From the IMG/VR virus record IMGVR_UViG_3300046616_000348, positions 10,775 through 74,774 of that record: 64,000 nucleotides of DNA; one strand, given 5' to 3'. How positions within the stretch are numbered: position 1 is the first letter of the stretch; every line of letters begins with the position of its first letter. The notes below the pieces were generated by a model. That model was not told the DNA's origin. It was given only the letters and a program-made list of their open reading frames with translations, and did not search any database. Below, one piece after another: positions 43,606 through 63,763 of this stretch. The DNA is from a virus. The translations under genes were made by a program, and so were the position numbers.

Positions 43606-43609
43606 AGGT

Positions 43610-46788: not shown

Positions 46789-46790
46789 GG

Positions 46791-47225: not shown

Positions 47226-47233
47226 GTTGTCTC

Positions 47234-47521
47234 CTAGGTGCAACTTTTTGCGGGGTCATTGGCGGCCGCGACGATGCGGCGGTGGCGCAGCAGCGCGGCC
47301 ATAAGGGCGTGCTGGAGTTGGGTGGGCAGGATGACGCGGTGGGGAAAGTCGGGCGATCGCCGCTTGTCCATCTTCACCCCCTGCCAGAGCGGGGTGTCGT
47401 TCCAGTGGATCAGCACCCACTCTCGGGTGAGGTTGTGCTGGTCCACGAAGTAGTACCGGATGCACATCGTCTCATCGAGGCGCCGGCTATACCGGAAGGT
47501 GCGGGCGGAGATGGTGACCAT
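47234..47521 (-). CDS. TISARTF paralog A
   Basis: MVTISARTF; similar to 49538-49816. Confidence 0.65.
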   Translation of the reverse strand: MVTISARTFRYSRRLDETMCIRYYFVDQHNLTREWVLIHWNDTPLWQGVKMDKRRSPDFPHRVILPTQLQHALMAALLRHRRIVAAANDPAKSCT

Positions 47522-47766
47522 CAGAAGTCCAGCTGCCGGCTCGGCAGGGTGTGGAGCTTGATGGCGAGATGGGCATTGCCCACGGTCTCGTCGTCACCGA
47601 AGGCCTCGCCGAACATGCGGCGGGCCTCCTCGGGGGTGGAGAAGTAGCCGTACCACTCCTCCCGCGCCTCCCCGCCGACGTCGACGTCGTAGATCACGAT
47701 GTAGGTGGGGCGGATAAGGTGGCGCATGGTCTGCCGGAGTGCGGCCAGCAAGATCTTGAGCTTCAT
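47521..47766 (-). CDS. Hypothetical early protein
   Basis: Coupled ORF. Confidence 0.65.
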   Translation of the reverse strand: MKLKILLAALRQTMRHLIRPTYIVIYDVDVGGEAREEWYGYFSTPEEARRMFGEAFGDDETVGNAHLAIKLHTLPSRQLDF

Positions 47767-47996
47767 GTCGGTGTCCTATTGGTGGGGATGTAGCCATCGC
47801 GAATTGCGGCGGCGATGGCAGCGCAGGTCTTCGCCCAGCTCGCCGGCTTCGATCCGAAAGCCTTCGTCAACCTGTAGCCATCGGGCTCGAGGTCGAGGTC
47901 GAAGCTCTGCGGTGCGGAAGCGGGGAATGGGCGGTAGATTAGGCGGAGGCCAGCGGGCATGCGCCCGCCGACCACCTTGAAGTGCGACGCCCTCAT
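47763..47996 (-). CDS. Small protein sharing the AAAIRDG C-terminus with 49538-49816
   Basis: ATGA-coupled; AIAAAIRDGYIP. Confidence 0.6.
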   Translation of the reverse strand: MRASHFKVVGGRMPAGLRLIYRPFPASAPQSFDLDLEPDGYRLTKAFGSKPASWAKTCAAIAAAIRDGYIPTNRTPT

Positions 47997-49528
47997 GCCT
48001 TGGTCCGGAACGTCACGTAGAGGGTGTTGACGTTGGTGCCGACCTCGGAGAACGAGCCGGCCGGGAGATCGACGAACTCGCCATTGAGCGAGGCCACGAA
48101 CTCGCGGAAGGCGATGGCCTTGCGCGTCTCGCGGAACTCGGTGCCGGCCGACATGATGGCGGTGAGCTTCCCGCCCGGCTTCAGGAACTTGACGGCGTGC
48201 ATGACGTGGTCGATGTCGCGCTCGCGGTCGAAAGGCGGGTTCATCACGATGATGTCGTAGGGCTGGGTGCTGGCCGGATCGAGCTGCAGGAAGTCCATGC
48301 AGAACACCCGGTTGTAGTGGCCCTCGGCCTCGAGCGCGGCGGCCAGGTGGGGCTGGATCTCCACACAGTCGACGAGGTTGTCGTACCTGTATTGCTCGGC
48401 GTAGCGCCCGGCCTTGCTGGGGACGGTGATGCAGCGTCGGGCTAGGTTGCCGGTGCCGGCGCTGGGCTCGAGGATGCGCAGCCGGGGCTTGTCCTTGTCC
48501 TGGAAGACGTGGATGCCGCTGCTGTAGTGCCGCGACCCGCGACCATCGAAGACCCTGTCGCCGGCCTCGTCCGGGGTCGGGAAGAACCCGTAGTAGCGGG
48601 CGGGCAGGTGCTTCACCTCGGCGAAGGGGTCGGCCTCGGCGGTGTTCCCGTCTCCAATCACCTCGCCGTAGTATTCGGCGAGCACCTTGTTCACCTTCTC
48701 GACCATCCCCTTGTCGGTGAACCAGAGGTGGGCGTTGCCGTTCTTGTAGATGCGGATCTTCATGAACCGCGACTCGATCTCGCTCTGCTTCGGCGAGAAG
48801 GTGTTGGACCGGTCTCGCTCGATGAGGTGCACGATCGTGCCGGTCGCCGGCAGGGGTTCGCCAGCCAGGACGTAGAAGACCCGCTCGACATCCAGCAGCT
48901 GGTCGCGCTTGCTGCCCCAGCTGAAGCGGCCGTGGTCGCGGTCGCAGATGTAGTTGACGATCATGCGGGAGCCGACCTTGAAGCCGTCGTGCGAGCGGAA
49001 GCGGCGATCGAGGCCGGAGAACACGTTCGCCAGCCCGCGCCGGAAGATCATGTCGGCATCGAGCATGAACTGCTGGATGGTGGCCTGCACGTTCTCGACG
49101 CTGATCTCGGGGAGGCCCTTGGCCGCCTCCTCGTCGGTGATCAGCTGGCCGCGCCGATCGACGCGGTCGGGGACGTAGGCCATCTGGCTGCGGAGCTGCT
49201 TCTTGGCCTCGGCATCCATCAGGCGCTCGAGGTCAGTGCGCTCGATGATGTAGGCCCAGACGTTGATGTCCATGAGCTTCCGGGCGGTGCGCAGATACTC
49301 GTCGCGGTTGGGGAGCTTGATGGCTTCGTCGAAGCGCTTGATCTCCCCCTCGTGGCCGTAGTTGAAGCCGTTGATGCCGGGGGAGGCGTTGCCGGCCATC
49401 GCCTTGGCAGCGGCGACGGCTTCCTCGGCCTCGAGGAGCTTGTCGTAGGCGATGCCATAGAGCTGGAGGGCAGCGTCACGGAAGCCGACGATCTGCTCGA
49501 TCGTGGCGCGGGGCATAATCGCGTTCAT
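47993..49528 (-). CDS. DUF4942 domain fused to an m6A-type methyltransferase
   Basis: YKNGNAHLWF; FFPTP, ILEPSAGTG, MNPPF. Confidence 0.88.
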   Translation of the reverse strand: MNAIMPRATIEQIVGFRDAALQLYGIAYDKLLEAEEAVAAAKAMAGNASPGINGFNYGHEGEIKRFDEAIKLPNRDEYLRTARKLMDINVWAYIIERTDLERLMDAEAKKQLRSQMAYVPDRVDRRGQLITDEEAAKGLPEISVENVQATIQQFMLDADMIFRRGLANVFSGLDRRFRSHDGFKVGSRMIVNYICDRDHGRFSWGSKRDQLLDVERVFYVLAGEPLPATGTIVHLIERDRSNTFSPKQSEIESRFMKIRIYKNGNAHLWFTDKGMVEKVNKVLAEYYGEVIGDGNTAEADPFAEVKHLPARYYGFFPTPDEAGDRVFDGRGSRHYSSGIHVFQDKDKPRLRILEPSAGTGNLARRCITVPSKAGRYAEQYRYDNLVDCVEIQPHLAAALEAEGHYNRVFCMDFLQLDPASTQPYDIIVMNPPFDRERDIDHVMHAVKFLKPGGKLTAIMSAGTEFRETRKAIAFREFVASLNGEFVDLPAGSFSEVGTNVNTLYVTFRTKA

Positions 49529-49537
49529 GTGGGTCTC

Positions 49538-49816
49538 TCAGGTGTCACTGTTGACGGGGACGAGGCCGTCGCGGATCGCGGCGGCGAGGATTGCGTAGGC
49601 GACCTTGCGTGGGAGGATACAGGCGAGGTTGAACTTGCCGTGGTCGGTCTTCGATCGGTCCAGGGTCGCCGAAACGACCCCTTCAGGCCGGATCACCAGC
49701 TCCCAGTGGCGGCGCCGGCGCTTGGCGCCGCGGTCGCGGTAGGTGAGATAGGTCCAGCCACCGCCCTGATCGTCGATGCGGCCGTCGACGAAGGTGCGGG
49801 CGCTGATGGTTGCCAT
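49538..49816 (-). CDS. TISARTF paralog B
   Basis: MATISARTF. Confidence 0.65.
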   Translation of the reverse strand: MATISARTFVDGRIDDQGGGWTYLTYRDRGAKRRRRHWELVIRPEGVVSATLDRSKTDHGKFNLACILPRKVAYAILAAAIRDGLVPVNSDT

Positions 49817-50259
49817 CAGCCGCCCACGCCGCGCAGCACGGCGTTGCGCCCCCGGCGAACGATGATCTCGTCGGCGACGCGACTATCGATGTCGGCAGGA
49901 ACCCTGAAGGGCCGGCCGTTCTCCTCCACTGCGATCGGGTGGCCGGGCATCCACTCGATCTGGTTGACGAACCACGGGATGAACTCCCAGTCGTAGGGGA
50001 CGAAGAGCTCCTGATCGTCCTCGGGGATCGCGTTCCAGGCGGCGCAGGCCGGGCCGCCGAGGTCGATGGCGGCGTGCCGCATCTCGACGCTGCCGTGGTT
50101 CTCCCAGGCGGAGGCGAAGATGGCGTGCTGCCCGTCCTCCATCGGCTTGGCGTTGTCAGCCCGGCCGTGCTCGGTGTAGGCGGCGAGCATGTCCTCCCAG
50201 ATGCAGAGCGCGGCCTCGACGTGGAGGCGGGTGAAGCCTCCGGTCTGGAGCGCGCTCAT
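49816..50259 (-). CDS. Hypothetical early protein
   Basis: Coupled; PYDWEFIPW. Confidence 0.7.
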   Translation of the reverse strand: MSALQTGGFTRLHVEAALCIWEDMLAAYTEHGRADNAKPMEDGQHAIFASAWENHGSVEMRHAAIDLGGPACAAWNAIPEDDQELFVPYDWEFIPWFVNQIEWMPGHPIAVEENGRPFRVPADIDSRVADEIIVRRGRNAVLRGVGG

Positions 50260-50780
50260 GCTGCGAGCACCGTGGCGCGGCCGATCTCGACGACGAGGTA
50301 GTCCTGTACTTCATCGCTGACCGTGAACTTCGGGAGGTCGGCGCCGGCGGCGTGCTTGAGCTCCGCCACCTTGGCCCTGACGGCGGCCTCGAGGTCGGGT
50401 TCCTCGAGCAGCTTCTCCATTCCCCAGCCGCTGATGTCGCGGGCGCCGCTGTGGGTCTCCTTCTCGTCGCCCGGATACCAGACGCTGTTGCCGGGCTCTT
50501 CGCCCTGGGTAGCGTCGTAGTAGCGCTCGTAGCCGATGCCGAGCTCCTGCAGGACTTCGGTCACCGTCGACAGGTCGCCGTAGTTCACCTCGTCGTCCTC
50601 AAAGAGGGGCGAGCTCTCATTGGCGAGGGCGGCGGCGAACCCGCGAAGGTGGGCGGTGCGGCCCCTATCCTCGCTGCACTTCAGGTCCATCGTGTTCAGC
50701 GCATTGAGGATTTCCTCGAGGCCGTCGACGGTGGCGATGTGCCCGTGGATGGCGATATTGGCGTAGATGCGGTCACCCAT
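50256..50780 (-). CDS. Acidic early protein
   Basis: Start MGDR at 50780 after hairpin-SD element. Confidence 0.72.
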   Translation of the reverse strand: MGDRIYANIAIHGHIATVDGLEEILNALNTMDLKCSEDRGRTAHLRGFAAALANESSPLFEDDEVNYGDLSTVTEVLQELGIGYERYYDATQGEEPGNSVWYPGDEKETHSGARDISGWGMEKLLEEPDLEAAVRAKVAELKHAAGADLPKFTVSDEVQDYLVVEIGRATVLAA

Positions 50781-50825
50781 AGGGGTGGTCTCCTTTGGTT
50801 GCACAGTTGCAGGGGGCAGGCAGGG

Positions 50826-51425
50826 TCAGTCGGGATCGAGCAGGTTCAGCTCGTGGATGGCGATCGCCTTGATGGCGATCGGCAGGCCCTTGGAGGCCAG
50901 CTGCCGGACGTAGTCGACGGCCTCCTCGTCGGAGCCGAAGACGGGTTCGCCTACACCGCTGGGGCGGACGTCGGACATGTCATCGACGCGGTTGATCAGG
51001 AAGCCGCGGCCGGTCGAGAACAAGTCCCAGCCGTCGCGCTGGGCGGCGTCCTGATCCTCGAACGACCAATCGCCCAAGACGGCGACCTGCCCCCGCACGA
51101 GGGCGAGCCGCTGTTCCTTAAGGTAAGCCCAGGCGTCGAACGTGGTGCTGTGCATCTGCGACAGCTCGGCCTGCGCCTCGGGGAAGACGGACTGCCAGAG
51201 CGGGCCGTCGCTGTCGTCGACGAACTCGACGAAGTAGCCGGCCGAGGCATACTCCTCCCTGATCTCGGTCAGGTCGAAGCGGTGGGCCTCCCCGTTCGCG
51301 TCATAGACGTCGAGCACGTCGGACGTGGTGCCCGGCTTCACCTGGTAGTAGCGGGCCTTGTGCGCGGCCTCTTCCAGGCTGTCGGCCTCGACGTCGATCT
51401 CCCAGGTTACGCGGTATTCAGTCAT
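50826..51425 (-). CDS. Acidic early protein with DpnD-like N-domain
   Basis: MTEYRVTWEIDVEADSLEEAA. Confidence 0.72.
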   Translation of the reverse strand: MTEYRVTWEIDVEADSLEEAAHKARYYQVKPGTTSDVLDVYDANGEAHRFDLTEIREEYASAGYFVEFVDDSDGPLWQSVFPEAQAELSQMHSTTFDAWAYLKEQRLALVRGQVAVLGDWSFEDQDAAQRDGWDLFSTGRGFLINRVDDMSDVRPSGVGEPVFGSDEEAVDYVRQLASKGLPIAIKAIAIHELNLLDPD

Positions 51426-51813
51426 GGTGCGGACCTCCCAGGTCGGACATCTTGCCCTTCAGCAGCTTGCCGGCGGCGGTGCGGATGCGGGGGAATTGGG
51501 CGGCGAGGGCAGTGTGCCCCCGGATGTAGTCGTCCAGGCCGGGCGGCACGCCGGCGCGAAGGGTTTGGTTGGGGACGATCAGGGTGTCGCCCTCGACGTC
51601 CCACCCGTCGGGGAGCGGCTCGCCGGTGAGCGGGTCGAGTGCCTCCCACCACATCGGCTCGACCCCCTGGCCGTTGCCTTGGAAGTCGCCGGTCGGGTCT
51701 TCGGACTGAGCCCAGGTCTCGGCCGCGATCTCCTGCGCCTCGTGGCCGTCCTCGGCCTCGACCTCGACGATGTAGGTGACAGTCTCCTTGAGCTGCACGC
51801 GGAACTTAGCCAT
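51418..51813 (-). CDS. DpnD/PcfM-like protein
   Basis: MAKFRVQLKETVTYIVEVEAEDGHEAQEIA. Confidence 0.7.
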   Translation of the reverse strand: MAKFRVQLKETVTYIVEVEAEDGHEAQEIAAETWAQSEDPTGDFQGNGQGVEPMWWEALDPLTGEPLPDGWDVEGDTLIVPNQTLRAGVPPGLDDYIRGHTALAAQFPRIRTAAGKLLKGKMSDLGGPHHD

Positions 51814-52004
51814 CAGCTGGCCTCCATGAATTGGGCATCTGCCTGGTTGAGGAGCTTGGCGATCCGCCGGCCCAGCGACTTGCGCTGGGCAAGGGTGCCC
51901 TCTCGAATTTCGATGAGCTCGGTGCCGTCGTCGTCGACGACGAGCACGGTGTCGTCGACCTTGTCGCCCTCTTCAGGGCCGCTCATGCCGTAGCGGTCAC
52001 GCAT
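51813..52004 (-). CDS. Small hypothetical protein
   Basis: GAGG SD, ATG 52004. Confidence 0.6.
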   Translation of the reverse strand: MRDRYGMSGPEEGDKVDDTVLVVDDDGTELIEIREGTLAQRKSLGRRIAKLLNQADAQFMEAS

Positions 52005-52254
52005 CCTCGTCCTCCTCTTCCTCGTCGGCCGCCACGACGAGCTGGTCGAAGGTCCACTCGCTGCCGCCCTCGCAGAGGAACAGCTGCTTGCCGCCTCGCG
52101 TCTTGGCGTAGGAGTCGTCGTAGAAATGCTCGGTGCCCGAGTAGTCGAACTCGGGCGAGCCATCGTCGTTGATGCCGGAAATGCCGCACTTGCCGGGGGT
52201 GAGGACGAGGGCTGCGACGATCGCGTCGCCGTTCGGGGAGACGTAGGCTTTCAT
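51997..52254 (-). CDS. Small acidic protein
   Basis: AGGAGG SD, ATG 52254. Confidence 0.65.
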   Translation of the reverse strand: MKAYVSPNGDAIVAALVLTPGKCGISGINDDGSPEFDYSGTEHFYDDSYAKTRGGKQLFLCEGGSEWTFDQLVVAADEEEEDEDA

Positions 52255-52577
52255 TTGGGAAGTCCTCCTTCGCGGTCGGTGTCGATCGAGGTGCGATCGG
52301 GTCCGATGCGGACGTTGATGGGTTCTTCGTGGTGGGCGTCGTAGCAGTGGACGACGAGGTAGCTGCCCTGCTGCTCGATCCAGACCGATCGCTTCATCAG
52401 GTCGTCGCCGGGGGCGTCCTCGACGTCGACGATGATGTCCGTCTCGGTGATCCGGATGGTGACGTTGAACGGCACGCACTCGCCCTCGTCGTGGACGGAT
52501 GGGTCGAGGGTGCGAAGGGTTCTGGCTAGACGGATGTCGGTGTTGGGCATGCGCTTGCCCGCGGTGTTTTCCGGCAT
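52251..52577 (-). CDS. Hypothetical early protein
   Basis: GAGAGG SD, ATG 52577. Confidence 0.65.
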   Translation of the reverse strand: MPENTAGKRMPNTDIRLARTLRTLDPSVHDEGECVPFNVTIRITETDIIVDVEDAPGDDLMKRSVWIEQQGSYLVVHCYDAHHEEPINVRIGPDRTSIDTDREGGLPK

Positions 52578-52597
52578 GGTGGCCTCTCTGCTTGGGG

Positions 52598-53032
52598 TCA
52601 GTTGAAGGTGGGGACGACGCCCGATTTCATGGCTTCGAGCTGGGCGCGGGTGAGCCACTGGGTGAGCAGCTTGTCGGACGAGTATTCGTGCAGCACGGTC
52701 CACCGGACGGAGCCGGGCTGGCCTCGGCTGACCAAGAACTCGACCTCGTGGCATTCGGGGCTGAAGCCCTCGCCATCCTCCGGGCTCTCAACGTCCATGC
52801 AGTAAGCGGCGCCGTGATTGCCGCTGATCGTCACGCTGTGGCCGAAGGGGGCGGCGACGGTCTCGGCTGCGGTCAAGAGGTGCAGCAGCTCCTCGATATG
52901 CTCGAGCTCGAGGGTGAGGGCGGCGTGTTTGAGGGACGGGAACCAGTGCTCGCTGGCAGCGTCCTTGAGGAAGAGGTTGAAGCCGGGGCCGTCATCCTCG
53001 TCGTCGAACTCTTGGTGGGTGAAGACGGGCAT
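52598..53032 (-). CDS. Acidic hypothetical protein
   Basis: AAAGGA SD. Confidence 0.68.
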   Translation of the reverse strand: MPVFTHQEFDDEDDGPGFNLFLKDAASEHWFPSLKHAALTLELEHIEELLHLLTAAETVAAPFGHSVTISGNHGAAYCMDVESPEDGEGFSPECHEVEFLVSRGQPGSVRWTVLHEYSSDKLLTQWLTRAQLEAMKSGVVPTFN

Positions 53033-53046
53033 TGCGGGCGATCCTT

Positions 53047-53682
53047 TCAGGTGAGGTGACCCCAGTGCCGCACCATCGCGGCGGCCAGTCCGGGGCGAGT
53101 GAGGGAGCGGCGCGCCCCTCGGGAGGGGCTGCGCTGTTCGTTGTGCTGGCCGCTCTCCGTCTGGTTGGAGTAGCGGTCCTTGATGAGCGGGGCGGTGGGC
53201 GTCAGCTCGGGTAGGTTGTCGAGCCAGAGGCAGGTGTCCTTGCTGTAGTCATCGCCGAACCAGTTCGGGTTGACCTTCTGCGTCCACGGCCTGATGCGGG
53301 AGCCAATCGCGCCGGGCGGGTTCTCGATGCAGCGCCGGCGGATGGGGAAGGCGAAGAGCTGGCGCACGAACTCGAGCGCCCGCTCGGTTTCCTCGGCGCG
53401 GCCGGGGATGGTCTTGTTCCAGTGAAGCCCGGCACGGGAGAGGAAGGTGCAGGGTGGGAAGGCGATGAGCATGTCCCAGGGCAGGTTGTGCCCGGGTACT
53501 CCTCGGGCCAGGACGTCGAGGACGTCGCCGACGAGGTGGAAGTCGGGGTGCTGCTGCACCGGGTAGATCCACCACTCTTGGCTGTCTGGCCCGAGGATGT
53601 CGCACGACCAGGCATTGTGCCCGGCATTCCGGAAGGCATCCCGGACGCGGCCGCTGAGCTCGCAGCCGACGAGGATGTTCAC
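53047..53682 (-). CDS. Short phage C5-cytosine methyltransferase-like protein
   Basis: ILVGCELSG, SCDI, FPPCT, IENP, TCLWL, RSLT. Confidence 0.8.
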   Translation of the reverse strand: MNILVGCELSGRVRDAFRNAGHNAWSCDILGPDSQEWWIYPVQQHPDFHLVGDVLDVLARGVPGHNLPWDMLIAFPPCTFLSRAGLHWNKTIPGRAEETERALEFVRQLFAFPIRRRCIENPPGAIGSRIRPWTQKVNPNWFGDDYSKDTCLWLDNLPELTPTAPLIKDRYSNQTESGQHNEQRSPSRGARRSLTRPGLAAAMVRHWGHLT

Positions 53683-53960
53683 TCGTCGTCGTCCTCGTCG
53701 TCAGTGAGGTCTTCGACCATTTCCAGGGCGTCGTCATCGGCCGGGCCCACGATCGTCATCGCCGGCGAAAGACTGACCTCCGGCAGCTCGGGGTCGTGGT
53801 ACTGGAGGCCGCTGATCGGCACGTCGTTCATGTAGCCGACCTCAAGGTCGAGCCCGGTCTCGTGCAGCTGGCGCTGGACGAGCTCGACGGCAGCCTCGTG
53901 GGTCTCGGCGCGGATGTAGGCGGTCGCCACCATCCGGACGTCGATGCTGAACACTTTCAT
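53679..53960 (-). CDS. Acidic DpnD-like protein
   Basis: AGGAG SD; MKVFSIDVRMVATAYIRAETHEAA. Confidence 0.65.
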   Translation of the reverse strand: MKVFSIDVRMVATAYIRAETHEAAVELVQRQLHETGLDLEVGYMNDVPISGLQYHDPELPEVSLSPAMTIVGPADDDALEMVEDLTDDEDDDE

Positions 53961-54130
53961 TTGGGCTCCTTGGCAGGGCGCAGGCCGCGCACCTTCACCG
54001 CGCCGTAGTCGGCGCTGTAGTTGCACTGTTCGTTGACGAGGCTTCGCACCTCGCGGCGGGCGTCGGCCGGGCTCATCTCGCGCGGCACGCTGACGGTGAG
54101 CAGCATCGTCACCTTCTTGCGGGCCGCCAT
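53957..54130 (-). CDS. 57-aa protein not in the ORF track
   Basis: AAGGGAG SD; coupled at both ends; MAARKKVTMLLTVSVPREMSPADARRE. Confidence 0.6.
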   Translation of the reverse strand: MAARKKVTMLLTVSVPREMSPADARREVRSLVNEQCNYSADYGAVKVRGLRPAKEPK

Positions 54131-54522
54131 CACCTGGCTCCCTTCAGCACGGTGTAGGCGCTGCGGGAGTGGACGAAGCCCTCGACCTGGAACGGGCGCT
54201 TCGGTCCGACATCGAGGAGGAAGCGCTCGCGCTTACCGTCGACGCCGCCCCAGCCGGTGACGTGGATGCCGACATCGGCGGCGCCCTCGTGGTCCGGGCT
54301 TTCCGACCCGAACTCGACGGCAAAGGAACCGATGCCGTTCTGCAGGGCGCGGGTCGTCTGCTCGATGCCGATCTCCTGCGACAGCCAGTGCAGCAGGTTG
54401 CAGATCATGTCGCCGCCGCAGGTCAGCGGGCCGTCGGCCTCCGGGTGGAGGTCGAGGCCCTGCTCGTCGGCGAATTGGCGAACGAGATCGTCCACGCTCA
54501 AGGCGCGGTCATCGTTGCTCAT
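54130..54522 (-). CDS. Hypothetical early protein
   Basis: DMICNLLHW motif. Confidence 0.7.
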   Translation of the reverse strand: MSNDDRALSVDDLVRQFADEQGLDLHPEADGPLTCGGDMICNLLHWLSQEIGIEQTTRALQNGIGSFAVEFGSESPDHEGAADVGIHVTGWGGVDGKRERFLLDVGPKRPFQVEGFVHSRSAYTVLKGAR

Positions 54523-54532
54523 GGTGCTCTCG

Positions 54533-55702: not shown

Positions 55703-56694
55703 CAGAGGGTCACGTCCTGGTTGTCACGAGCCCACTGCATGAAGGCAGGGGTGTGGGTGAGGCCGGGGTCTCGGCGGCAGGCGTCGACGACAACCATCGT
55801 GGCGAACGTGCGCGGCATCCGGTTGATGTAGCGCATGATGTTCCCGAAGTTGTTCATCGCCGCCTTCCGGGCGAGCGCCGAGCTGATGGCGAAGCGGGCG
55901 GCAATGTCCTCGTCTCCCGGCACCTTGGCCCCGTCCGGGTCCATGATGCAGTGGTCGATCGAGGGCAGGCTCTGGTAGGTCCGGATGAACCCCTCGAACT
56001 CGCCGCCGGCAGCCTCGCCGACGATGCCCGACACAGCGTCGAGGCGGATGGAGCGGTCGGCATTCACGTACTTGGCGGCCTGTTCCCACGAGCGGGGCGA
56101 GGGGAAGGCGCGCATGTCGACCAGGTTCATGACGTGGATCAGCTCCGGCCGGAACCGGACGAAGGCGATCAGGACGGGGTCGATGTCATTCTTGTTGGCC
56201 CACTTGGTGAACGAGTCGACGTCGGCCTCGATGTCGATGTGGGCGAAGCGGTTGGCGAGCGCGGACGGCATCTTCTGGGCAGCAGCGCGGTCGCTCTGAC
56301 GGTTGCCAGCGGCGACGATGCGCCACCCGTCGGGCAGCTTGTAGTTGCCGACCTTGCGGTCGAGGACGAGGCCGAAGCACGCTGCCTGCATCTGCGGCGG
56401 GGCGGCGTTGAGCTCGTCCATGAAGAAGATGCCTTCCTTGCCATCGCGGGCTTCGTTCGGCATGTCGTCAGGCGCGACCCAGCGGGCCGTGCTGCCGTCG
56501 ATGATGGTGGGCAGGCCGCGCAGGTCTACCGGGTCGCGGAGGACGGCGCGGAAGTCCACGAGGCCCCAGCCGCGCTTCTGCGCGATCTGCTTCACTACGG
56601 AGGACTTGCCGATGCCCGGCGCGCTCCACTGGAAAGCGGGGGTGTCGCCGTCGATGTAGGTCTCGGTGAGCTGGGCTGCACGTTCGATGTTCAT
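55702..56694 (-). CDS. MoxR-family AAA+ ATPase
   Basis: APGIGKS, DLRGLP, FFMDELN, AAGNR, ALANRF, PSPRSW. Confidence 0.92.
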   Translation of the reverse strand: MNIERAAQLTETYIDGDTPAFQWSAPGIGKSSVVKQIAQKRGWGLVDFRAVLRDPVDLRGLPTIIDGSTARWVAPDDMPNEARDGKEGIFFMDELNAAPPQMQAACFGLVLDRKVGNYKLPDGWRIVAAGNRQSDRAAAQKMPSALANRFAHIDIEADVDSFTKWANKNDIDPVLIAFVRFRPELIHVMNLVDMRAFPSPRSWEQAAKYVNADRSIRLDAVSGIVGEAAGGEFEGFIRTYQSLPSIDHCIMDPDGAKVPGDEDIAARFAISSALARKAAMNNFGNIMRYINRMPRTFATMVVVDACRRDPGLTHTPAFMQWARDNQDVTL

Positions 56695-56765
56695 GCTGAT
56701 CTCTCTGGTGTCATGATTGACGGGGGGCAGGGGTGGCCGTCGCGCTGCCGCGGCGGCCGGGTTCG

Positions 56766-56978
56766 TCAGTTGGTCTTCTGGTCAGTGTGCGAGATGACGA
56801 TCAACTCGGTTGCGACCTCGAGGACGTAGGCGGTCTTCAGGCTGAGAACGCGGCAGATGCCCATGAACTCGATCTTGGCGTCTTCGCGGGTGGTGGCCTG
56901 CAAGTCGCGCTCGTCGATCGCACCGCCGGCGCCAGCCGAGTGCATCCGGAAGACGGGGGTAGGGGTAGGCTGGCTCAT
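56766..56978 (-). CDS. Small hypothetical protein
   Basis: ATGA-coupled. Confidence 0.6.
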   Translation of the reverse strand: MSQPTPTPVFRMHSAGAGGAIDERDLQATTREDAKIEFMGICRVLSLKTAYVLEVATELIVISHTDQKTN

Positions 56979-57877
56979 GCGATGAAGGCTCCGATCTGGT
57001 CGAGGATGTCCTGCGCCTGCTTCTTGGTCTCGTCGCGGGCACGATCGCTGAAGCGCAGGGTGTCAGCGTCGAAGCGGCCGAGCTTCTCAAGCTCGCTGGC
57101 GAGGCGGTCGAGGTCAGGGCTGCCGGTGATGTTGAGGGCCGGCATGATGCCGCACAGGTCACGGACGTTCAGCACCAGCGAGTCGCGGAAGGTGCCCTCG
57201 GCGCGGTCGCCCTTGCCCTGGGAGGGGCGGTAGGCGGTGAGGCGCTCGACCATGCGGCTGCAAACCTCATGGATGCGCTCGTAGACGTTCTTCACCGCCG
57301 CCTCGGCGGCAGAGGTGATGGACGCCTCGATCTCCGAGCGGATCGCTGCGGCCTGATGCTCGCTCATCTGCACCCGGAAGTCCTCGGCCGACGGAGCGGG
57401 CATGATCCGCATCCGCATATCGAAGCGGGCGCGGAGGTCGCGGACGAGGGGGAAGTCGGTCGGGTCGAACATGTCGCCCATGCGGCGCTGCGCATCGGCG
57501 GTGTAGGCAGGGTACTTCGTGAGGAACTCCTCGACGGCCTCGAAGAACTTGGTCTTCTGGCCCTGGAACCATGCCGAGTGCGCCATGAAGGCCTCGGCCC
57601 TCATGATGCGGCTGCCGTCGTTCATCCACGGCAAGGTGCGCTGGAGGAAGTCGTCGCGGGTGGCGCTGACGATCTTGTTGATGCCGCCGAGAGCCTCCTT
57701 GGGGAGGAGGTGCTTGTTGAAGTTGCCGGCATCCTTGGCGGCGTTCTTCTGCTGGGTCACCTCCTCGGTCACGCTGCGGTCGAGGCGCTGGGCCGACCAC
57801 TGCGAGATGCTGAGGGACACAACCATCGCGCGGCTCGAGAGCGAGCCGGAGACGGACATAGGGGCGAGAGCGTTCAT
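56975..57877 (-). CDS. DUF3150-like protein associated with MoxR/vWA
   Basis: Start 57877; LSSRAMVVSLSISQWS, TLPW, FRDSL. Confidence 0.7.
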   Translation of the reverse strand: MNALAPMSVSGSLSSRAMVVSLSISQWSAQRLDRSVTEEVTQQKNAAKDAGNFNKHLLPKEALGGINKIVSATRDDFLQRTLPWMNDGSRIMRAEAFMAHSAWFQGQKTKFFEAVEEFLTKYPAYTADAQRRMGDMFDPTDFPLVRDLRARFDMRMRIMPAPSAEDFRVQMSEHQAAAIRSEIEASITSAAEAAVKNVYERIHEVCSRMVERLTAYRPSQGKGDRAEGTFRDSLVLNVRDLCGIMPALNITGSPDLDRLASELEKLGRFDADTLRFSDRARDETKKQAQDILDQIGAFIA

Positions 57878-57948
57878 GCGTGGGATCTCCGTTGTTGCAT
57901 GATTGCAGGGGGTAGGCACTTCAGGCCGCGGGCTATGGGGGCTCCATG

Positions 57949-58227
57949 TCAGCGGCGGTTCACGAGCTGCGCGGCCTGGAAGATGACGTCGACGTCATGC
58001 TCCCGGAAGTCGTCGATCGCAGCGTGCGGGGGTGTCAGCTCCACCGGGTAGGTGTAGCCGTGGTTCGTCTCGGACTTGCCGAGGGGGTCTTTCGTGTAGA
58101 CCCAGTCGACGATGACGTCCTTGTATTGAAGCTGGCTCGTGAGCGCTTCGGACATCAGGTCGGAGGCGTCGTCAGGGCTCCGGGCGTCGACGATGACGTA
58201 AACGCGGGCGATGTAGCGGGGCATCAT
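57949..58227 (-). CDS. DpnD-like small protein
   Basis: MPRYIARVYVIVDARSPDDA. Confidence 0.6.
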   Translation of the reverse strand: MMPRYIARVYVIVDARSPDDASDLMSEALTSQLQYKDVIVDWVYTKDPLGKSETNHGYTYPVELTPPHAAIDDFREHDVDVIFQAAQLVNRR

Positions 58228-58943
58228 TGGTCCATGAAACGGGACACCGCCCAGTTGGCGAGCATCTCGCAGAGGCCTTCGGAGAAGGCGCTCGGCAGGA
58301 TGGTCAGGGTGGCGATGTCGTGTTGGGTTGAGAGTTCGCTGGCACGGAAGGTGCAGGCGATCTCGATGACGGCCTCGTCGTGCCGGTTGCCGATGTCGGT
58401 GGTCCGGAGGTAGGCGATTTCGAGGGCGTAGATGTAGGAGCCGCTGATCCACTCGCGCTCGTGCTCGTGGAAGTCCTCGCGCTCCTCGTCGGTCAGTTCG
58501 TCGTGATACCAGCGCCAGAGGTGGCTCCGGATGTCGGCGTCGACCTGGGCCTTGGTCTTGCCCAGGTAGGTCGCGGCGTACTCGTAGAGGGACCGCAGGT
58601 TGCGCGGGTGGCGGATCGCTTCGAGCTCCTCGTTCCACTCGGGGTGCTCGTGGTCCACCCACGACAGCAGGGCCTCCATTTGCTGGGCCTCCACTTCATC
58701 GGCGAGGCACTTCGGCAGGCGGCCTTGGCTGTTGGCATTGTCGATGTCGCACTCGAAGTCGATGCGCCACCCGCCGGACGCTCGCGACCAGAGCTGGCCG
58801 GTCTCGATGTCCTCAATCTCCGGGGTGCGGGTCACCTCGTCGGTGCGTTCCATCAGGTCCATCACCTCGGCGCATAGGAGGCGGCCGACCTCGTCGATCG
58901 CCGCGAACGGCTCCGGCATCAGCCGGGCAGGTTGGTGGGTCAT
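58224..58943 (-). CDS. Acidic hypothetical protein
   Basis: 239 aa, Glu/Asp-rich. Confidence 0.72.
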   Translation of the reverse strand: MTHQPARLMPEPFAAIDEVGRLLCAEVMDLMERTDEVTRTPEIEDIETGQLWSRASGGWRIDFECDIDNANSQGRLPKCLADEVEAQQMEALLSWVDHEHPEWNEELEAIRHPRNLRSLYEYAATYLGKTKAQVDADIRSHLWRWYHDELTDEEREDFHEHEREWISGSYIYALEIAYLRTTDIGNRHDEAVIEIACTFRASELSTQHDIATLTILPSAFSEGLCEMLANWAVSRFMDQ

Positions 58944-58952
58944 GGGTCTGTC

Positions 58953-59735
58953 TCATGCGAGGGTGAGGGCGAGGGCACGAGGAAGCGGGATGCCGGGCTT
59001 GTCCTTGACCCAGTCCCGGATGTGCCAGCCGGCGGCGGCCTTGGCCTCCGGCAGGCAGTTCTGCTCGTAGTCGCCGATGAAGCCCCAGCAGGCGTCGACC
59101 TCGTCGCCCTCTTCGATCTCGTCGCCATCCTCGTCGAGGGTGGGCGGGGTCTTGAGGCGGTAGCCGTAGACGTTGCCGGTGGCCCAGTCGGAATACTCTT
59201 CGACCTCGCCCTGCAGCAGCTTGCGGGCGCGCTCGATGTTCTCGGGGGTCACCTCCCCGTACTCTTTGGCGATGTCGGCATGGGTGACGTAGATGAAGCC
59301 GGTCTCGCTGGTCAGCGAGGCGGCGTAGGCGGCATCGCACCAGCCGAGGTCGCCGTGCTGGTAGCGGCCGACGCCGAGGCCGAGGATGAGGCAGCGCTCG
59401 CTGATGTTGGCGAGCAGCTTGCCGGGCGCGTCCTCAATGCGGCCTTCCAGATCCCAGTCGGTGAGGGCGGCGAGGTCGTCGACGGTCTCGTTCGGCTCGC
59501 GGTAGAGCCAGGCGATCAGCCATTCGGGGATGTCGAGTTCAGTGGCGAGGCCGTAGAGCCATAGGGCGACGCTGCGGCTGGGCTGCTCGTCGCCCATCTT
59601 GTAGTTGCGGGACCAGCTGACCATCGTGCCGACGTTGTCCCATTCGCGCGGGTTGTTGCCCGAGTCGTCGTCCTGGACGATCTCGAGGACAAAGCCGTGC
59701 TCGAGGGTCTCTTCGTGGGCGATGTAGTCAGCCAT
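58953..59735 (-). CDS. Acidic early protein
   Basis: Start 59735; NPREWDNVGTM, EVEEYSDW..GNVYGY, DACWGFIG. Confidence 0.78.
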   Translation of the reverse strand: MADYIAHEETLEHGFVLEIVQDDDSGNNPREWDNVGTMVSWSRNYKMGDEQPSRSVALWLYGLATELDIPEWLIAWLYREPNETVDDLAALTDWDLEGRIEDAPGKLLANISERCLILGLGVGRYQHGDLGWCDAAYAASLTSETGFIYVTHADIAKEYGEVTPENIERARKLLQGEVEEYSDWATGNVYGYRLKTPPTLDEDGDEIEEGDEVDACWGFIGDYEQNCLPEAKAAAGWHIRDWVKDKPGIPLPRALALTLA

Positions 59736-59976
59736 TGGCCGTGCCCTCCGCCGCAGGGCTGCTTCGTGGGGGGTCGACGTCATCCATGTCGTCGAGGACG
59801 ATCACGCAGGCGATCGCGTCGTGGGTGCGGTTGCAGCGGTCCTCAACGGCGAGGTTGTTCTCGATGCGCATGACGCTGGCGCCGGCGGCGAACGAGGTGG
59901 CGATGACAACGGCTGCGGCACCGATGATGGCGACGCGGCGGCGCAACAGCTGGCGCTGGGATGGGTAGTAGGTCAT
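59728..59976 (-). CDS. Small membrane protein
   Basis: Start 59976 after hairpin-SD element; one TM helix. Confidence 0.65.
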   Translation of the reverse strand: MTYYPSQRQLLRRRVAIIGAAAVVIATSFAAGASVMRIENNLAVEDRCNRTHDAIACVIVLDDMDDVDPPRSSPAAEGTANG

Positions 59977-60062
59977 GAGGTCTCCTGAGTTGCCACAATT
60001 GGCGGGGGTTAGGGCGTGAGCGTCCTGTGCGACGCGCCGCTCGGGCGCGTCAGGCGGGGTGC

Positions 60063-60503
60063 TCACATGGCGTAGATGCGCCCGTCGTCGCCGACGTAGA
60101 GGTCGACCTGACGGAAGCCCTTGGCGATGTCGCGGAGCATGTCGTCGAGGGGGTCGGCCCAGTCGCCGTCGCCGAAACCCGCTCCGTGTCCGTTACGGGT
60201 CAGCCAGAAGTCATGGCCTGCCATCTGCTCGGGGGTGCTGCCGCTGGTGTTGCGGATCAGGACGCCGTCGCACAGGGCATTGCCGCACTTGGCGAGGAAG
60301 GCGGCGCAGTCCTTGATGGCCTGCTCGATGGCCTCCGGGGCGAGGTCGTCGAGTTCGTAATTCTCATCCATCGGCAGGCCGCCGGTTTCGGGGTCGCTCT
60401 CGTCAGCCGAGGACCAGAGTGCCGTAACGAGGTAGTGACGGGTCAGGTCGTCGAGGGAGGCGACCAGCTCGACGCTGCGGGGGTGTGGCTCGGGCTTTTC
60501 CAT
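60063..60503 (-). CDS. Conserved-type phage early protein
   Basis: YLVTALWSS, AGHDFWLTRNGHGAGF. Confidence 0.8.
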   Translation of the reverse strand: MEKPEPHPRSVELVASLDDLTRHYLVTALWSSADESDPETGGLPMDENYELDDLAPEAIEQAIKDCAAFLAKCGNALCDGVLIRNTSGSTPEQMAGHDFWLTRNGHGAGFGDGDWADPLDDMLRDIAKGFRQVDLYVGDDGRIYAM

Positions 60504-60748
60504 CAGTGGTCAGCCCGGCAAACGAGGCCGCCGGCGAGGGCGCCGGCGAGGAGGTTGTCGATGTAGCGCGGCTCGACGATCAGGCTGGCGCCGTACCACT
60601 GCGCCTCGGGGTCGATGTGCTCGTCGATCCAGCGCTGGCCCTCATCAGTGAGGGGGGTGCACAGCACGATGGAGCCGAAGAAGGCGAAGTCGAGGTCGCG
60701 CGCTGGTGGCTCGACGTAGAAGGGGTCGAGGATGTCGAGGACTTTCAT
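60503..60748 (-). CDS. Small early protein
   Basis: Hairpin-SD element; GSIVL...WIDEHI...VEPRY. Confidence 0.72.
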   Translation of the reverse strand: MKVLDILDPFYVEPPARDLDFAFFGSIVLCTPLTDEGQRWIDEHIDPEAQWYGASLIVEPRYIDNLLAGALAGGLVCRADH

Positions 60749-60790
60749 GCGGGGGTCTCCCAGGGTGCCACAGTTGGCGGGGTTGAGGGG

Positions 60791-60976
60791 TCAGGCGACG
60801 ACGACTGCCCAGGTGCGGTCGTCGGTCTTCTTGCCGAGCTTGCAGCTGCCGAGGGCGAGGATCGCCTTGATGTCGGCGAGGCTGTCGGCAGAGCGGAAGC
60901 CGCGGAAGTCGGTGAACACGTCGGCACCGAAGCGGAAGCGGTAGACGTTGAAGGTCCAGTCGTACTCGACGAACAT
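60791..60976 (-). CDS. Small early protein
   Basis: GGAGG SD, ATG 60976. Confidence 0.6.
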   Translation of the reverse strand: MFVEYDWTFNVYRFRFGADVFTDFRGFRSADSLADIKAILALGSCKLGKKTDDRTWAVVVA

Positions 60977-60978
60977 GG

Positions 60979-61245
60979 TCAGTCCTCCGCCTGAACGGCT
61001 GGGCCCAGTCCCGATGGGACACAGGCGGCCGTCAGGCCTGCATTGGTCAGGGCGAGCATCAGCTCGGCACACTGGGTTGCGGTGAGCTCGGCAGGGCCGG
61101 TGCGTGCCGGGCCTGCGAGGGTGGCGGAGTGCTTGCCTGCGGCCTCCGAGTGGACGAGGACGACGAGGTCGAATGTCCACTCTGAGGCGAGGGCAGGGGT
61201 CACGTTCTGCAGGAGGCAGGCGAGGGCGCAGAGGGTGCGGATCAT
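60979..61245 (-). CDS. Small secreted protein
   Basis: GGAGG SD; MIRTLCALACLL...ALA signal peptide. Confidence 0.6.
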   Translation of the reverse strand: MIRTLCALACLLQNVTPALASEWTFDLVVLVHSEAAGKHSATLAGPARTGPAELTATQCAELMLALTNAGLTAACVPSGLGPAVQAED

Positions 61246-61535
61246 TCGCCATCCTCCGCGTAGGCGCTGGGGATGCGGGCTTGGGTGTGGGCGCAGATCA
61301 GGTTGCCGTCCTCCCAGTTGATGTCGAGGGCGACGGGAAGCCATGACTGGTCAGGGTGGTTGCCGTCGCGCTCGTCGCGCAGGGCCTCGAGGAGGAGCCT
61401 GCGCTCCTCCTTGGCGGCCTCGAAGCTGAGGGCTTCGCCGTCAGCCATGATGAAGTAGCAGGGATACCCGCCCGGCCATGCGAATGGGCCGTGGTGGACC
61501 GCGCGGCGGAAGTCTCCGATAGAGGCGATCTTCAT
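61242..61535 (-). CDS. Small early protein
   Basis: FAWPGGYP, INWED, IPSAY. Confidence 0.72.
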   Translation of the reverse strand: MKIASIGDFRRAVHHGPFAWPGGYPCYFIMADGEALSFEAAKEERRLLLEALRDERDGNHPDQSWLPVALDINWEDGNLICAHTQARIPSAYAEDGE

Positions 61536-61537
61536 GG

Positions 61538-61729
61538 TCAGGCCGCAACCGCGTACCAGCCGGCGGGGGTGAAGCCAGCGTCGAGGACTTCGATCTCGCA
61601 GCACCAGCCGTTGACCATGAGGCGCTCGCCGTCTTCGGAAAGCACCTCGAACTCGCCGTCGAGGTCTGGGTCATGTTCGATTGTGTCGGCCTCGAAGTCG
61701 CCGACGGGGGTTGCGACGTGGATACGCAT
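61538..61729 (-). CDS. Small acidic early protein
   Basis: Hairpin-SD element; VNGW motif. Confidence 0.68.
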   Translation of the reverse strand: MRIHVATPVGDFEADTIEHDPDLDGEFEVLSEDGERLMVNGWCCEIEVLDAGFTPAGWYAVAA

Positions 61730-61819
61730 TGCAGTGGTCTCCGGGTTGCCATGATTGGCGGGGGTGGGCGAAGCGCCCAGTGCATCGCGCCTGCCAGGAT
61801 GCGCGATGGGCTGGGGGTT

Positions 61820-61942
61820 TCAGGCCTTCTCGATGCCGACGACAACGCCGGTTTTCTCGAAGATCTCGCGGGCGGCCTTAGTGGCGGACTCAAGGGTGGG
61901 ATAGGGGGTGGTTTTGCCACCCCGCTGGATTGTGAAGGCCAT
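61820..61942 (-). CDS. 40-aa protein not in the ORF track
   Basis: TGATG-coupled; MAFTIQRGGKTTPYPTLESATKAAREIFEKTGVVVGIEKA. Confidence 0.6.
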   Translation of the reverse strand: MAFTIQRGGKTTPYPTLESATKAAREIFEKTGVVVGIEKA

Positions 61943-62088
61943 CAGTGGAGCACGCGGCGCCCGGCCATCTGGCGGCGCTCAAGTTCCTTGCGGGCGAGGA
62001 AGGCCCGCGCCTCAATCGCGCGCTTCGCTATGGCGGCCTCGCGCTGCTCATCCTTGCGCGTGGTGAAGTATGGGTGACGTGGGATCAT
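61942..62088 (-). CDS. 48-aa basic protein not in the ORF track
   Basis: Hairpin-SD element then ATG 62088; MIPRHPYFTTRKDEQREAAIAKRAIEAR. Confidence 0.62.
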   Translation of the reverse strand: MIPRHPYFTTRKDEQREAAIAKRAIEARAFLARKELERRQMAGRRVLH

Positions 62089-62222
62089 GGTTAGAGGTCT
62101 CCGGGGGGTGCCATCATTGGCGGGGTTCGGCCGTGCAGCCGTCGAGGCGGACGCCTAGCGTCCGTCCGGATGGGTGCAGGGGGTTGCACCCCCTCGCGGG
62201 GGAGGGGGTGCAGGGGGTGGGA

Positions 62223-62780
62223 TTAGGCGGCCTTCTGCTCGGCGGCGGCCTTGGCCTTCGCCTTGTTCTTCGCGCGGCCTTCCTTCGAGGTGTCGACCGT
62301 CACCACGTTGCCGCCAGTCAGGACGGCCTCGGCCTCGGCGCAGAGCTGATAGGCCTTCGTGTGGGCGAGGTGCGCACCGGCCTTTTCGGCGGCCTTGAGT
62401 AGGGAGGCGAGCTTGGCGGCGAAGTCAAATTCGGCCTTGGCACCGGCCGCGTCCGGCTTGAAGTCGAGGGGTGCGCACAGTGCCGCGCCTTCGAGGTCGC
62501 CCTTGGCGGACTTGGCATAGGCGAACTTCACCGCGCCGGTTTCTTCGTCCGTGTTGACCTTGACCTTGCCGTAGGCCTTCGCCCATGCCGCAATCGCGGC
62601 CTTCGTCACCTTGCCGCCGATGGCGTCATAGAGGCGCTGAAGCGGGCGGACATCGCCGCTGGCGTCGATCAAGGCGAGGCAGGAATAGGCGACAGTGTGG
62701 AGCTGGCCGCCGAACTTGGCACCGGCCTTCACAACCGAGTTGATTGCGACGTTGAGCTTGTTGGAAGCGATAACCTGCAT
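62223..62780 (-). CDS. First early gene; Ala/Lys-rich phage protein
   Basis: GGAGA SD, ATG 62780; LHTVAYSCL...GDVRPLQRLY...AIAAW. Confidence 0.8.
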   Translation of the reverse strand: MQVIASNKLNVAINSVVKAGAKFGGQLHTVAYSCLALIDASGDVRPLQRLYDAIGGKVTKAAIAAWAKAYGKVKVNTDEETGAVKFAYAKSAKGDLEGAALCAPLDFKPDAAGAKAEFDFAAKLASLLKAAEKAGAHLAHTKAYQLCAEAEAVLTGGNVVTVDTSKEGRAKNKAKAKAAAEQKAA

Positions 62781-62819
62781 TTTGTATCTCCGAATTGCCA
62801 TCATTGGCGGGGGTTTCGG

Positions 62820-63377
62820 GCACTTGCCCGGCAAAGCGCACGGGGTGCGCTTGGCGAGGGAAGTCGGGGTCTAACCGCCGGAGGCGAACCCCCGGCGGTC
62901 AAAATCTCAAGTGGTGCCATATTTGGCGGGATTGAAATTCACACTCTTGCGCAAGCCCGGGGCCTACCACCCCGTTCGGATTTTTGCGTTCAGCCGTTGT
63001 GCTGCTTCCCGTCACCCCCTCTCACAAGGTGGCGGGCACCAGTGCCAGAACCTAGCAAGCCGTTCGGCGATGCTAGTTGCGCTTTTCCCTAGAACTTTTG
63101 TCCCTCAACACCCCGGCTTGCGTTGTCAGCGCTTGCCGTTTGGTCCGCCTTTTAAGGTCTAATGCGCCGTAACCCCCTCGGGTCTCCCCCTAGCCGTTGT
63201 CGACTAGGCCGGTCGCACTAACTAGCCTGCGGGGTTGCCGCGCCAGTGGTGCCGGATTGTTTAATCAGCGTTCCGTCTACGCCGCTTCCCTAAAGGTCGC
63301 CCTATTCACTCTGTCTAAGAACCTAGCCGCCACCCCGGAGGGTTTTGCCTAGTCGGCGGTGCGTTTCCGTCCGCCGA
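62820..63377 (-). ncRNA. Putative long structured leader / ncRNA
   Basis: No credible ORF; GAAA- and UUCG-capped stems on the minus strand; long-range complementarity. Confidence 0.45.
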
Positions 63378-63383
63378 TGACCA

Positions 63384-63413
63384 CTTATAACCCGCAAACT
63401 TTGCGCGATGCAA
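63384..63413 (-). promoter_or_regulatory. Sigma70-like early promoter
   Basis: TTGCAT(63413-63408)-N18-TATAAG(63389-63384); spacer palindrome CGCAAA-C-TTTGCG at 63393-63405. Confidence 0.6.
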
Positions 63414-63478
63414 TCCCCCAAAACGCAAAAAATGCATTTTGTGGGAAGGCCGGACGAAAGCGCTGTAAATCCAATGGC

Positions 63479-63528
63479 TTATACACCGCGCATAAAATGC
63501 TATGCGGGGGTTTACACGTTGCGCATTG
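63479..63528. promoter_or_regulatory. Two distal CI-operator-like sites
   Basis: TTATACACCGCGCATAA (63479-63495) and TTACACGTTGCGCATTG (63512-63528). Confidence 0.6.
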
Positions 63529-63763
63529 GCGAGTCATGCAATGGGGGAAGGGTGAAAAACGAATCGGCAAAGCGCGATTCGCCACCCCGTAACCCCCCCT
63601 CCGATCACTCCCCCGCAAGCCGGGGTGCGTCACCAGGTAAACACCCCCCGACGGGGTGCGCCCTGCTAGCACCCTTGCGCGCCACCCCTAGCGCACCCCC
63701 AACGCGCCACCCCGTGCCACTGGTGACGGGTTGCCAGCGTCGCACCGTATGCACCCCTTGCAC

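Follow-up and report, generated by a model that had tools for sequence, protein, structure and literature searches.

What kind of signal is a mini-hairpin that recurs just ahead of Shine-Dalgarno (SD) sequences along a phage operon, and on which molecule is it read? The question is raised by IMG/VR virus record IMGVR_UViG_3300046616_000348, a 74,774-bp sequence of 66% G+C whose right-hand 64 kb (record positions 10,775 to 74,774) make up the window analyzed here. It was assembled from metagenomic reads of the rhizosphere, and all sequencing runs found to contain the stretch are DNA metagenomes. The genome encodes tail sheath, tape measure, integrase, exonuclease VIII-like and primase/helicase proteins, which together indicate a temperate myovirus-type phage; a phage polymerase was not recognised among its genes. 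An earlier note on this DNA had pointed out the hairpin, in 11 minus-strand copies; these lie in a leftward block of ~38 genes (window ~41987-62870).

The start-linked mini-hairpin and its fixed ribosome-binding sequence are confirmed as a real, discrete signal. All 11 copies were found at the positions given before, and a strict scan (CCC, perfect 4/4/4 hairpin, loop-initial A, A after the stem) returned the same 11 from the minus strand, with no plus-strand match. The element consists of CCC, a 4-bp stem, an A-N-Y-R loop, the return stem, A(C/A)C, about 5 nt, GAGAY and ATG. The four stems reported earlier, GCCA, GTCA, TGCA and GCAA, with loops of the form A-N-N-R, are indeed 100% paired, and three of the four stem pairs are altered on both sides among the window copies. 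The pattern CCCNNCAANNNTGNNAM, which fixes CCC, CA-A, TG and A, leaves two outer stem positions free and does not require pairing, matched 10 times compared to 0.14 expected from shuffles, which bears out the expected excess over shuffled sequence; all 10 matches are perfectly paired. A weight matrix run over the whole 74.8-kb genome scored the copies at 22-32 bits and the next site at 11, in agreement with the statement that none lies outside the block.

Ten copies precede a start codon, as had been claimed, each with GGAGA or GAGAGA and with the ATG 14-21 nt past the stem. The stem-to-SD distance is 3-7 nt, the SD-to-ATG distance is 4-9 nt, and the element always has the orientation of its gene. 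GAGA[CT] stands at the SD of 10/10 element genes, compared to 13/68 other genes with a recognisable SD (Fisher p = 9e-7); thus the SD sequence belongs to the element. The restriction to a single 21-kb leftward accessory operon was also borne out.

Conservation of the element in relatives is seen upstream of a MoxR homologue of 62% identity in an Anderseniella metagenome-assembled genome (MAG), which carries CCC-GGCA-ATTC-TGCC-AACC-AAGGAGA-N6-ATG with a stem absent from the window. A pattern scan of IMG/VR gave 19 loci, chiefly in proviruses of 54-77 kb. In line with a check suggested in the earlier note, a 24-position covariance model was built and used to scan related phages, yielding 78 matches. 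Of these, 64 in 13 related records represent distinct copies that combine a perfect stem with a downstream SD-like sequence; the matches in records G011 and G012, weak or lacking starts, were left out of this family count. A start codon was located for 56/64 distinct copies. The lineage consensus reads (A/C)A-CCC, G C C A, A T Y A, T G G C, A (C/A) C N N N GGAGA. Hardly any variation is seen in CCC, in the two inner pairs (C-G and A-U), in the loop bases at either end or in the A that follows the stem, and G is nearly missing from the flanks. Covariation is found in the two outer stem pairs, giving eight stem types within and between genomes, among them CGCA, GGCA and TCCA, which are new in the relatives. 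Pairing across the family is 99.6%, and double-change cells number 49, compared to 12.9 in shuffles (the observed value was reached in 0/500 shuffles).

In the related records the pairing-free pattern matches almost exclusively paired sites, which within a given record nearly all share one strand. The structural proteins of the element phages are only 40-67% identical. Orthologues of the MoxR, DUF4942 and 300-aa genes and of the first gene, which share 45-60% protein identity, nonetheless keep the element in front of them, with differing stems; at one orthologous site 3-bp versions occur. The element is therefore conserved within a lineage of ~70-kb proviruses.

Controls separated this pairing from chance and from the host. 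Among 2.9 million viral contigs of IMG/VR, matched arms occur at 19 (GCCA), 16 (CGCA) and 11 (GGCA) loci, compared to one locus for a mismatched combination. The 3.9-Mb host MAG has nine matches to the pairing-free pattern, unpaired and at the chance level of a reversed-pattern control, none with an SD or start, and the full GCCA pattern was absent from all 401 genomes sampled from the class of that MAG, which shows that the element is phage-specific and not a host motif.

The folding strand is indicated by scans in which one arm was held constant and the other left unconstrained. When the constant arm was the 3' one, 60/76 sites were perfect, and at seven, spread over several different genes, the loop-closing pair sets a G against a U. 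When it was the 5' one, 57/64 were perfect, and A.C or C.A, tolerable in antisense folding, was found in none. As G.U occurs only on the coding strand and A.C/C.A is absent, the pairing is selected on the coding strand, as either mRNA or non-template DNA. The proposal that selection acts on structure and not on a double-stranded DNA operator is thereby upheld, by covariation within the genome, at orthologous sites and in IMG/VR, together with wobble confined to the coding strand. We infer that the strand folds as RNA and not as non-template DNA.

Altogether, we tentatively favor an RNA operator beside the ribosome-binding site that is read by a sequence- and shape-specific RNA-binding protein. 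The fixed SD at a fixed distance, the confinement to a single operon and the strict match to gene orientation indicate a role in translation initiation. The hairpin alone is thermodynamically marginal, with local folding energies no better than those of shuffles (z-scores near 0), and this, together with the near-invariant unpaired bases, argues that a ligand reads the element. In our model, the element would be read on the mRNA as a composite signal for the initiation of translation: a 12-nt hairpin with two fixed inner pairs (C-G and A-U), two free outer pairs and an A-N-Y-R loop, flanked by an invariant single-stranded CCC on the 5' side and A on the 3' side, would lie 3-7 nt ahead of the fixed GAGAY. 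A phage- or host-encoded protein might bind the hairpin, adjoin the SD and set the access of the 30S subunit. The ~10 accessory genes of one long operon could thus be switched jointly, most likely for shut-off or feedback, similar to Aca2 at anti-CRISPR operons. Binding of a protein to the hairpin and the direction of its effect are what we infer from this arrangement. The same ~30-nt module on many different genes may also act, or at least occur, as a cassette-exchange junction between related phages.

Several findings weigh against this protein-operator reading. A 4-bp stem is very short for a protein operator. Moreover, five relatives have TCCA-type copies near the provirus end (G003 ~1561, G007 ~1697, G014 ~1806, G004 ~73905 and G001 ~69773; L032, L048, L052, L039 and L031), which precede real open reading frames (ORFs) with the ATG ~9 nt past the stem (GAGATG or GGAAATG). 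Here the ATG abuts GAG and the GAGAY box overlaps the start codon, a poor fit to an SD-adjacent repressor site. Wobble pairs (G.U) turn up in only about 1 in 10 copies and the stems vary mainly by swaps of G-C to C-G, a pattern that does not tell RNA from single-stranded DNA. No binding protein was identified: the operon gave no Pfam or PHROG hint of an RNA-binding protein, and NusG, S21 and ProQ had no matches in the genome. A small XRE-like helix-turn-helix (HTH) protein of 83 aa, encoded at the distal end of the operon (42215-42466), is conserved in relatives and found in IMG/VR at only 11 loci, nearly all on element-bearing contigs; since all its carriers form one lineage, this is a lead and not evidence. 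A 76.7-kb IMG/VR provirus (L105, 100% complete) encodes a 39%-identical 83-aa HTH homologue and has no elements, and one 92%-complete record has one element and lacks the protein. The predicted structure of the 83-aa protein (mean predicted local distance difference test score of 51) is too poor for fold comparison; a profile search of the PDB gave no match to it, and the small operon proteins had no Pfam match.

The element could instead be a portable, cis-acting ribosome-binding module with no dedicated factor, a reading that we consider rather unlikely. The hairpin would lock up the sole G's of an otherwise G-free, C/A-rich spacer, leaving a strong GGAGA unpaired whatever lies upstream; alternatively, it may dock on the 30S platform or S1. 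In either form, acquired genes would be reliably translated within a transcript of 66% G+C. Such a module would account for the near absence of G around the stem (positions -8 to -1 and 12 to 17), for the uniform SD, for the presence of the element before unrelated genes and at mosaic junctions, and for the failure of family and profile searches to find a trans factor. However, a generic insulator needs no invariant CCC, fixed inner pairs, loop A's and 3' A, all of which are kept across phages of 57-66% G+C; local folding energies do not improve on those of shuffles, and the element is missing from about half of the operon's uncoupled gene starts.

A role in RNA processing or stability is unlikely in our estimation. 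An endonuclease would cut the polycistronic transcript at or just before CCC, so that the hairpin caps the downstream 5' end, or a RegB-like enzyme would be directed to the adjacent GGAG; either way, each cassette would obtain an mRNA lifetime of its own. The invariant CCC could serve as the cleavage determinant, and the element is immediately followed by GGAG, the sequence found at T4 RegB sites (PMC3014915). Copies lie in intergenic spacers, some after strong hairpins or intrinsic terminators that could shield the upstream segment, but upstream hairpins are not enriched (28/64, compared to 43% in controls) and two copies lie inside upstream coding sequence. In addition, a 4-bp hairpin is a weak 5' protector, processing does not require tight SD spacing, and no nuclease candidate was found.

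We regard as improbable a hairpin in the single-stranded, non-template coding strand of DNA. There it would either give an elongation factor a signal for loading or pausing, in the way that ops does for RfaH, or work mainly as a recombination adaptor for cassette exchange. Pairing on the sense strand is equally compatible with non-template DNA and RNA, 12 nt fits the transcription bubble, and the leader copy is conserved; nevertheless, no NusG/RfaH-like gene was found, and the fixed distance to a fixed SD sequence indicates the ribosome. As for recombination, the elements coincide with homology breakpoints, and the PeSL cassettes provide a precedent for shuffling by regulatory repeats (PMC2839356). 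In alignments of close relatives, homology blocks begin or end within a few bases of elements. BLAST breakpoints in eight genomes fall at 19/66 elements, compared to 23/183 other gene starts (odds ratio 2.8, p = 0.004), where the other starts were taken from the same regions and allowed a wider window and the genome comparisons are not independent. This enrichment comes from two groups of close relatives and disappears at one genome per group. Moreover, orthologous copies kept at 45-60% protein identity reflect purifying selection on a working signal and not a scar. The earlier remark that the element may be a cassette junction thus finds moderate, non-independent support, but the enrichment is limited to close relatives.

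A double-stranded DNA site, either the operator of a dimeric repressor or a per-gene promoter for a host sigma factor or phage polymerase, is largely refuted and very improbable: the element is palindromic, its loop region is loosely -10-like (mean 3.4 of 6) and some copies follow terminators, but eight stems, within and between genomes, are all complementary, which no half-site reader requires, the orientation strictly follows the gene, no -35 signal stands at the proper spacing (16-18 nt, compared to shifted controls), and neither a sigma factor (Sigma70_r2 had no matches) nor a T7-type or N4-type giant polymerase gene was recognised in the genome, with the control for the T7-type RNA_pol family equally silent. 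A check against DNA promoters predicted no sigma-70-like promoter in the block, and comparison with sigma-70, sigma-54, sigma-28 and sigma-32 promoters gave no consistent match.

Returning to the RNA operator, a more speculative extension, doubtful in our view, is that the lineage carries plug-in accessory or anti-defence cassettes with a shared hairpin-plus-SD adaptor, one phage protein timing the translation of the island and adaptor homology swapping the cassettes. The protein reading the adaptor might be a small HTH protein like Aca2, giving an integron-like cassette economy built on an RNA operator; we likewise hold this to be doubtful.

The view that the element was previously undescribed has held so far: no matching Rfam family was found, nor any matching paper in the literature that could be searched, the nearest class being the SAS/ESAS repeats. 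Rfam gave no match at gathering scores in the window and one chance-level match at E<=1 in 46000-64000. SAS/ESAS repeats occur in cluster K mycobacteriophages and cluster EF Microbacterium phages at 10-19 copies per genome (PMC3203893, PMC7302621). SAS has a 13-bp asymmetric consensus, GGGATAGGAGCCC, at the position of the ribosome-binding site, 3-7 bp ahead of the start codon (PMC3203893), whereas ESAS consists of 17-bp imperfect inverted repeats with a variable spacer, whose departures do not support pairing, and the authors favored a DNA-binding protein (PMC3203893, PMC7302621). The element resembles these repeats in its copy number, its single orientation, its restriction to non-structural genes and its absence from the host, as well as in a sequence at the ribosome-binding position fixed beyond pairing with 16S rRNA, an inverted repeat just upstream, and retention at orthologous genes. 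It differs from SAS in lacking any likeness to that consensus, or a 13-bp consensus of its own, and in placing GAGAY/GGAGA 4-9 nt before the ATG; compared to ESAS, it has 4-bp arms, a fixed 4-nt loop, 99.6% pairing and compensatory change. The hosts also differ, being Actinobacteria for SAS/ESAS and most likely Alphaproteobacteria for the phage described here.

The best-documented mechanism of similar shape, which we cite as an analogy, is that of Aca2/Aca1, small phage HTH proteins that bind hairpins in 5' untranslated regions and between anti-defence genes and block the ribosome (PMC13551039). Both systems have a conserved hairpin directly upstream of the ribosome-binding site, with RNA as the probable folded strand in the present case. 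However, no Aca member (DUF1870) was detected in this phage, no matching DNA inverted repeat was found in its promoter, and Aca2/Aca1 have one to three sites per genome, compared to ten or more for the element.

In phage T4, RegA controls ~30 early mRNAs at the ribosome-binding region, gp43 uses a hairpin-plus-SD operator, and RegB cuts intergenic GGAG (PMC3014915). RegA sites are unstructured and A+U rich, and the gp43 operator is a single, longer hairpin, unlike the element; no RegA, RegB or gp43-type gene was recognised in the phage genome. PeSL elements of T4-type phages are short repeats ending in an SD and start codon among accessory genes, where they serve as exchange sites (PMC2839356). 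They combine a strong sigma-70 promoter with a stable terminator stem-loop, whereas the element has no promoter signal and a 4-bp hairpin without a U-run.

Set against the MS2-type operator as generally known, the element shares an A-N-Y-A-type loop and a short stem near the start site. The MS2-type operator has a four-base A-N-Y-A loop, a bulged A, a 7-bp stem and the start codon in the hairpin; by contrast, the element has a 4-bp stem without a bulged A, its start codon lies outside the hairpin, and no coat-like protein is known in this double-stranded DNA phage. The comparisons with MS2 (ANYA) and RegB (GGAG) drawn in the earlier note therefore stand as resemblances, but the defining partners were not found in the genome. 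N4-type hairpin promoters, used by the virion RNA polymerase, have a 5-7 bp stem and a 3-nt loop, compared to 4 bp and 4 nt in the element, and RNA_pol gave no match in the genome, where the control for the family was silent as well. The lambda nut/boxB sites comprise boxA, a 5-bp stem and a GNRA-like pentaloop, and are read by N protein at about two sites per genome, whereas the element has a four-base A-N-Y-R loop and 11 sites, each tied in this comparison to an SD.

Start-linked repeats of actinobacteriophages have been known since 2011 without a mechanism, and the sequence evidence there speaks against an RNA fold. For the same kind of signal here, compensatory change, one-sided wobble, orthologous conservation and strong negative controls make the structural hypothesis well founded. 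Should a protein bind it, the element would mark out a translational regulon of ~10 genes in an accessory, possibly anti-defence, island, and the Aca2 principle of a protein-bound hairpin beside the ribosome-binding site would be widened from single operon leaders to a whole gene array. In addition, the covariance model is a practical marker for the accessory cassettes and exchange points of this lineage.

The ~38 genes of the block encode mainly proteins of unknown function, in addition to a DUF4942 methyltransferase, a second DNA methylase, a MoxR-like ATPase and a DUF2201 metallopeptidase/vWA protein, a gene content of accessory or anti-defence type (methylases, MoxR/vWA and many unknowns). 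Its description as a takeover or early region is an assumption drawn from gene order. Close DNA relatives were not found among deposited phages, the best cultured relative by tail sheath being 43% identical; the phage collection contains no cultured representative of this lineage, and plasmids gave only distant MoxR homologues of ~37% identity. The largest ORFs are the tape measure gene and one for a 1067-aa protein of unknown function (phrog_877) among the tail genes.

All copies lie on the minus strand. Copy 1 (62905-62930), CCC-GCCA-AATA-TGGC-A followed by TGAGAT, has no start codon and is placed in the ~600-nt operon leader, with an 11-bp UUCG-capped hairpin downstream of it. Copies 2 (62778-62811) and 3 (62086-62124) share GCCA-ATGA-TGGC and GGAGA before the ATG of the first gene (185 aa, phrog_1448) and of a 48-aa ORF, respectively. 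The GCCA stem recurs in copy 4 (61727-61762; GCCA-ATCA-TGGC, GGAGA, 63-aa ORF), copy 5 (60746-60781; GCCA-ACTG-TGGC, GGGAGA, 81-aa ORF) and copy 6 (59974-60006; GCCA-ATTG-TGGC, GGAGA, 82-aa ORF), each preceding the ATG. Copy 7 (57875-57910), TGCA-ATCA-TGCA with GGAGA, precedes the ATG of the 300-aa gene, called DUF3150-like in the earlier note, the orthologues of which have GCCA stems in relatives. Copy 8 (56692-56724), GTCA-ATCA-TGAC with GAGAGA, precedes the ATG of the MoxR-like AAA+ gene, and its orthologues have GCCA or GGCA stems. Copy 9 (50778-50814), TGCA-ACTG-TGCA with GGAGA, leads to the ATG of a 174-aa ORF, copy 10 (49526-49558), GTCA-ACAG-TGAC with (T)GAGAGA, to that of the DUF4942 methyltransferase, and copy 11 (47223-47254), GCAA-AAAG-TTGC with GGAGA, to that of a 144-aa ORF. 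A candidate decayed 12th copy (43591-43623, minus strand) has a 3-bp stem in a hairpin at 43609-43623 (CCCC-TCA-ATCG-TGA-ACC), followed by GGAGAT and an ATG at 43593.

Two copies had been said to lie inside upstream coding sequence, and this proved correct for those at 49544 and 47240 (copies 10 and 11): the hairpin lies within the 3' end of the upstream ORF, with the stop codon between hairpin and SD. The two ORFs that terminate in the element (49538-49816 and 47234-47521, both minus) are small and paralogous, and the hairpin encodes their C-terminal residues; it seems that the element constrains the ends of these proteins and not vice versa. Upstream of the genes at 54522 and 47766, the sequences CCCCC-AATAAC-GAGAG and CCCC-ACCA-ATAG-GAC resemble elements without the stem, which suggests decay or turnover of copies within the operon.

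At six of the 10 start-linked window copies, an ATG or GTG at the loop-stem junction opens a mini-ORF of 7-8 codons that spans the SD and ends in a TGA overlapping the ATG of the gene (ATGA); the sites listed are 59974-60003, 60746-60778, 57875-57907, 56692-56721 and 49526-49555. An internal start at this junction was considered across the family and rejected: ATG/GTG is present in 62/64 copies, and the frames (26/15/15) and TGA-ATG overlaps (15/56) are not significant. A tRNA-like ACCA tail after the stem, as in an RNase P mimic, was also rejected, ACCA being present in only about a quarter of copies.

The entry to the operon has a layout common to the window (62812-62900) and its relatives (G001 31800, G003 41500, G005 31990 and G007 39500). 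Before the first gene, every relative has a terminator-like hairpin with a T-run, a second small hairpin and then the element, which suggests that operon entry is under attenuation or antitermination control in the leader. Elsewhere in the relatives, the copies in G003 at 28896, G014 at 38024 and G001 at 44787 stand 10-25 nt past classical intrinsic terminators with U-runs, so expression of the gene that follows must depend on read-through or antitermination. Beyond the leader, a putative early promoter, TTGCAT-N18-TATAAG, lies at 63384-63413 (minus). Its spacer contains a perfect 11-bp palindrome, GCAAAGTTTGC (63394-63404), which is loosely like the GCAA/TTGC stem at 47240 and is likely a repressor site.

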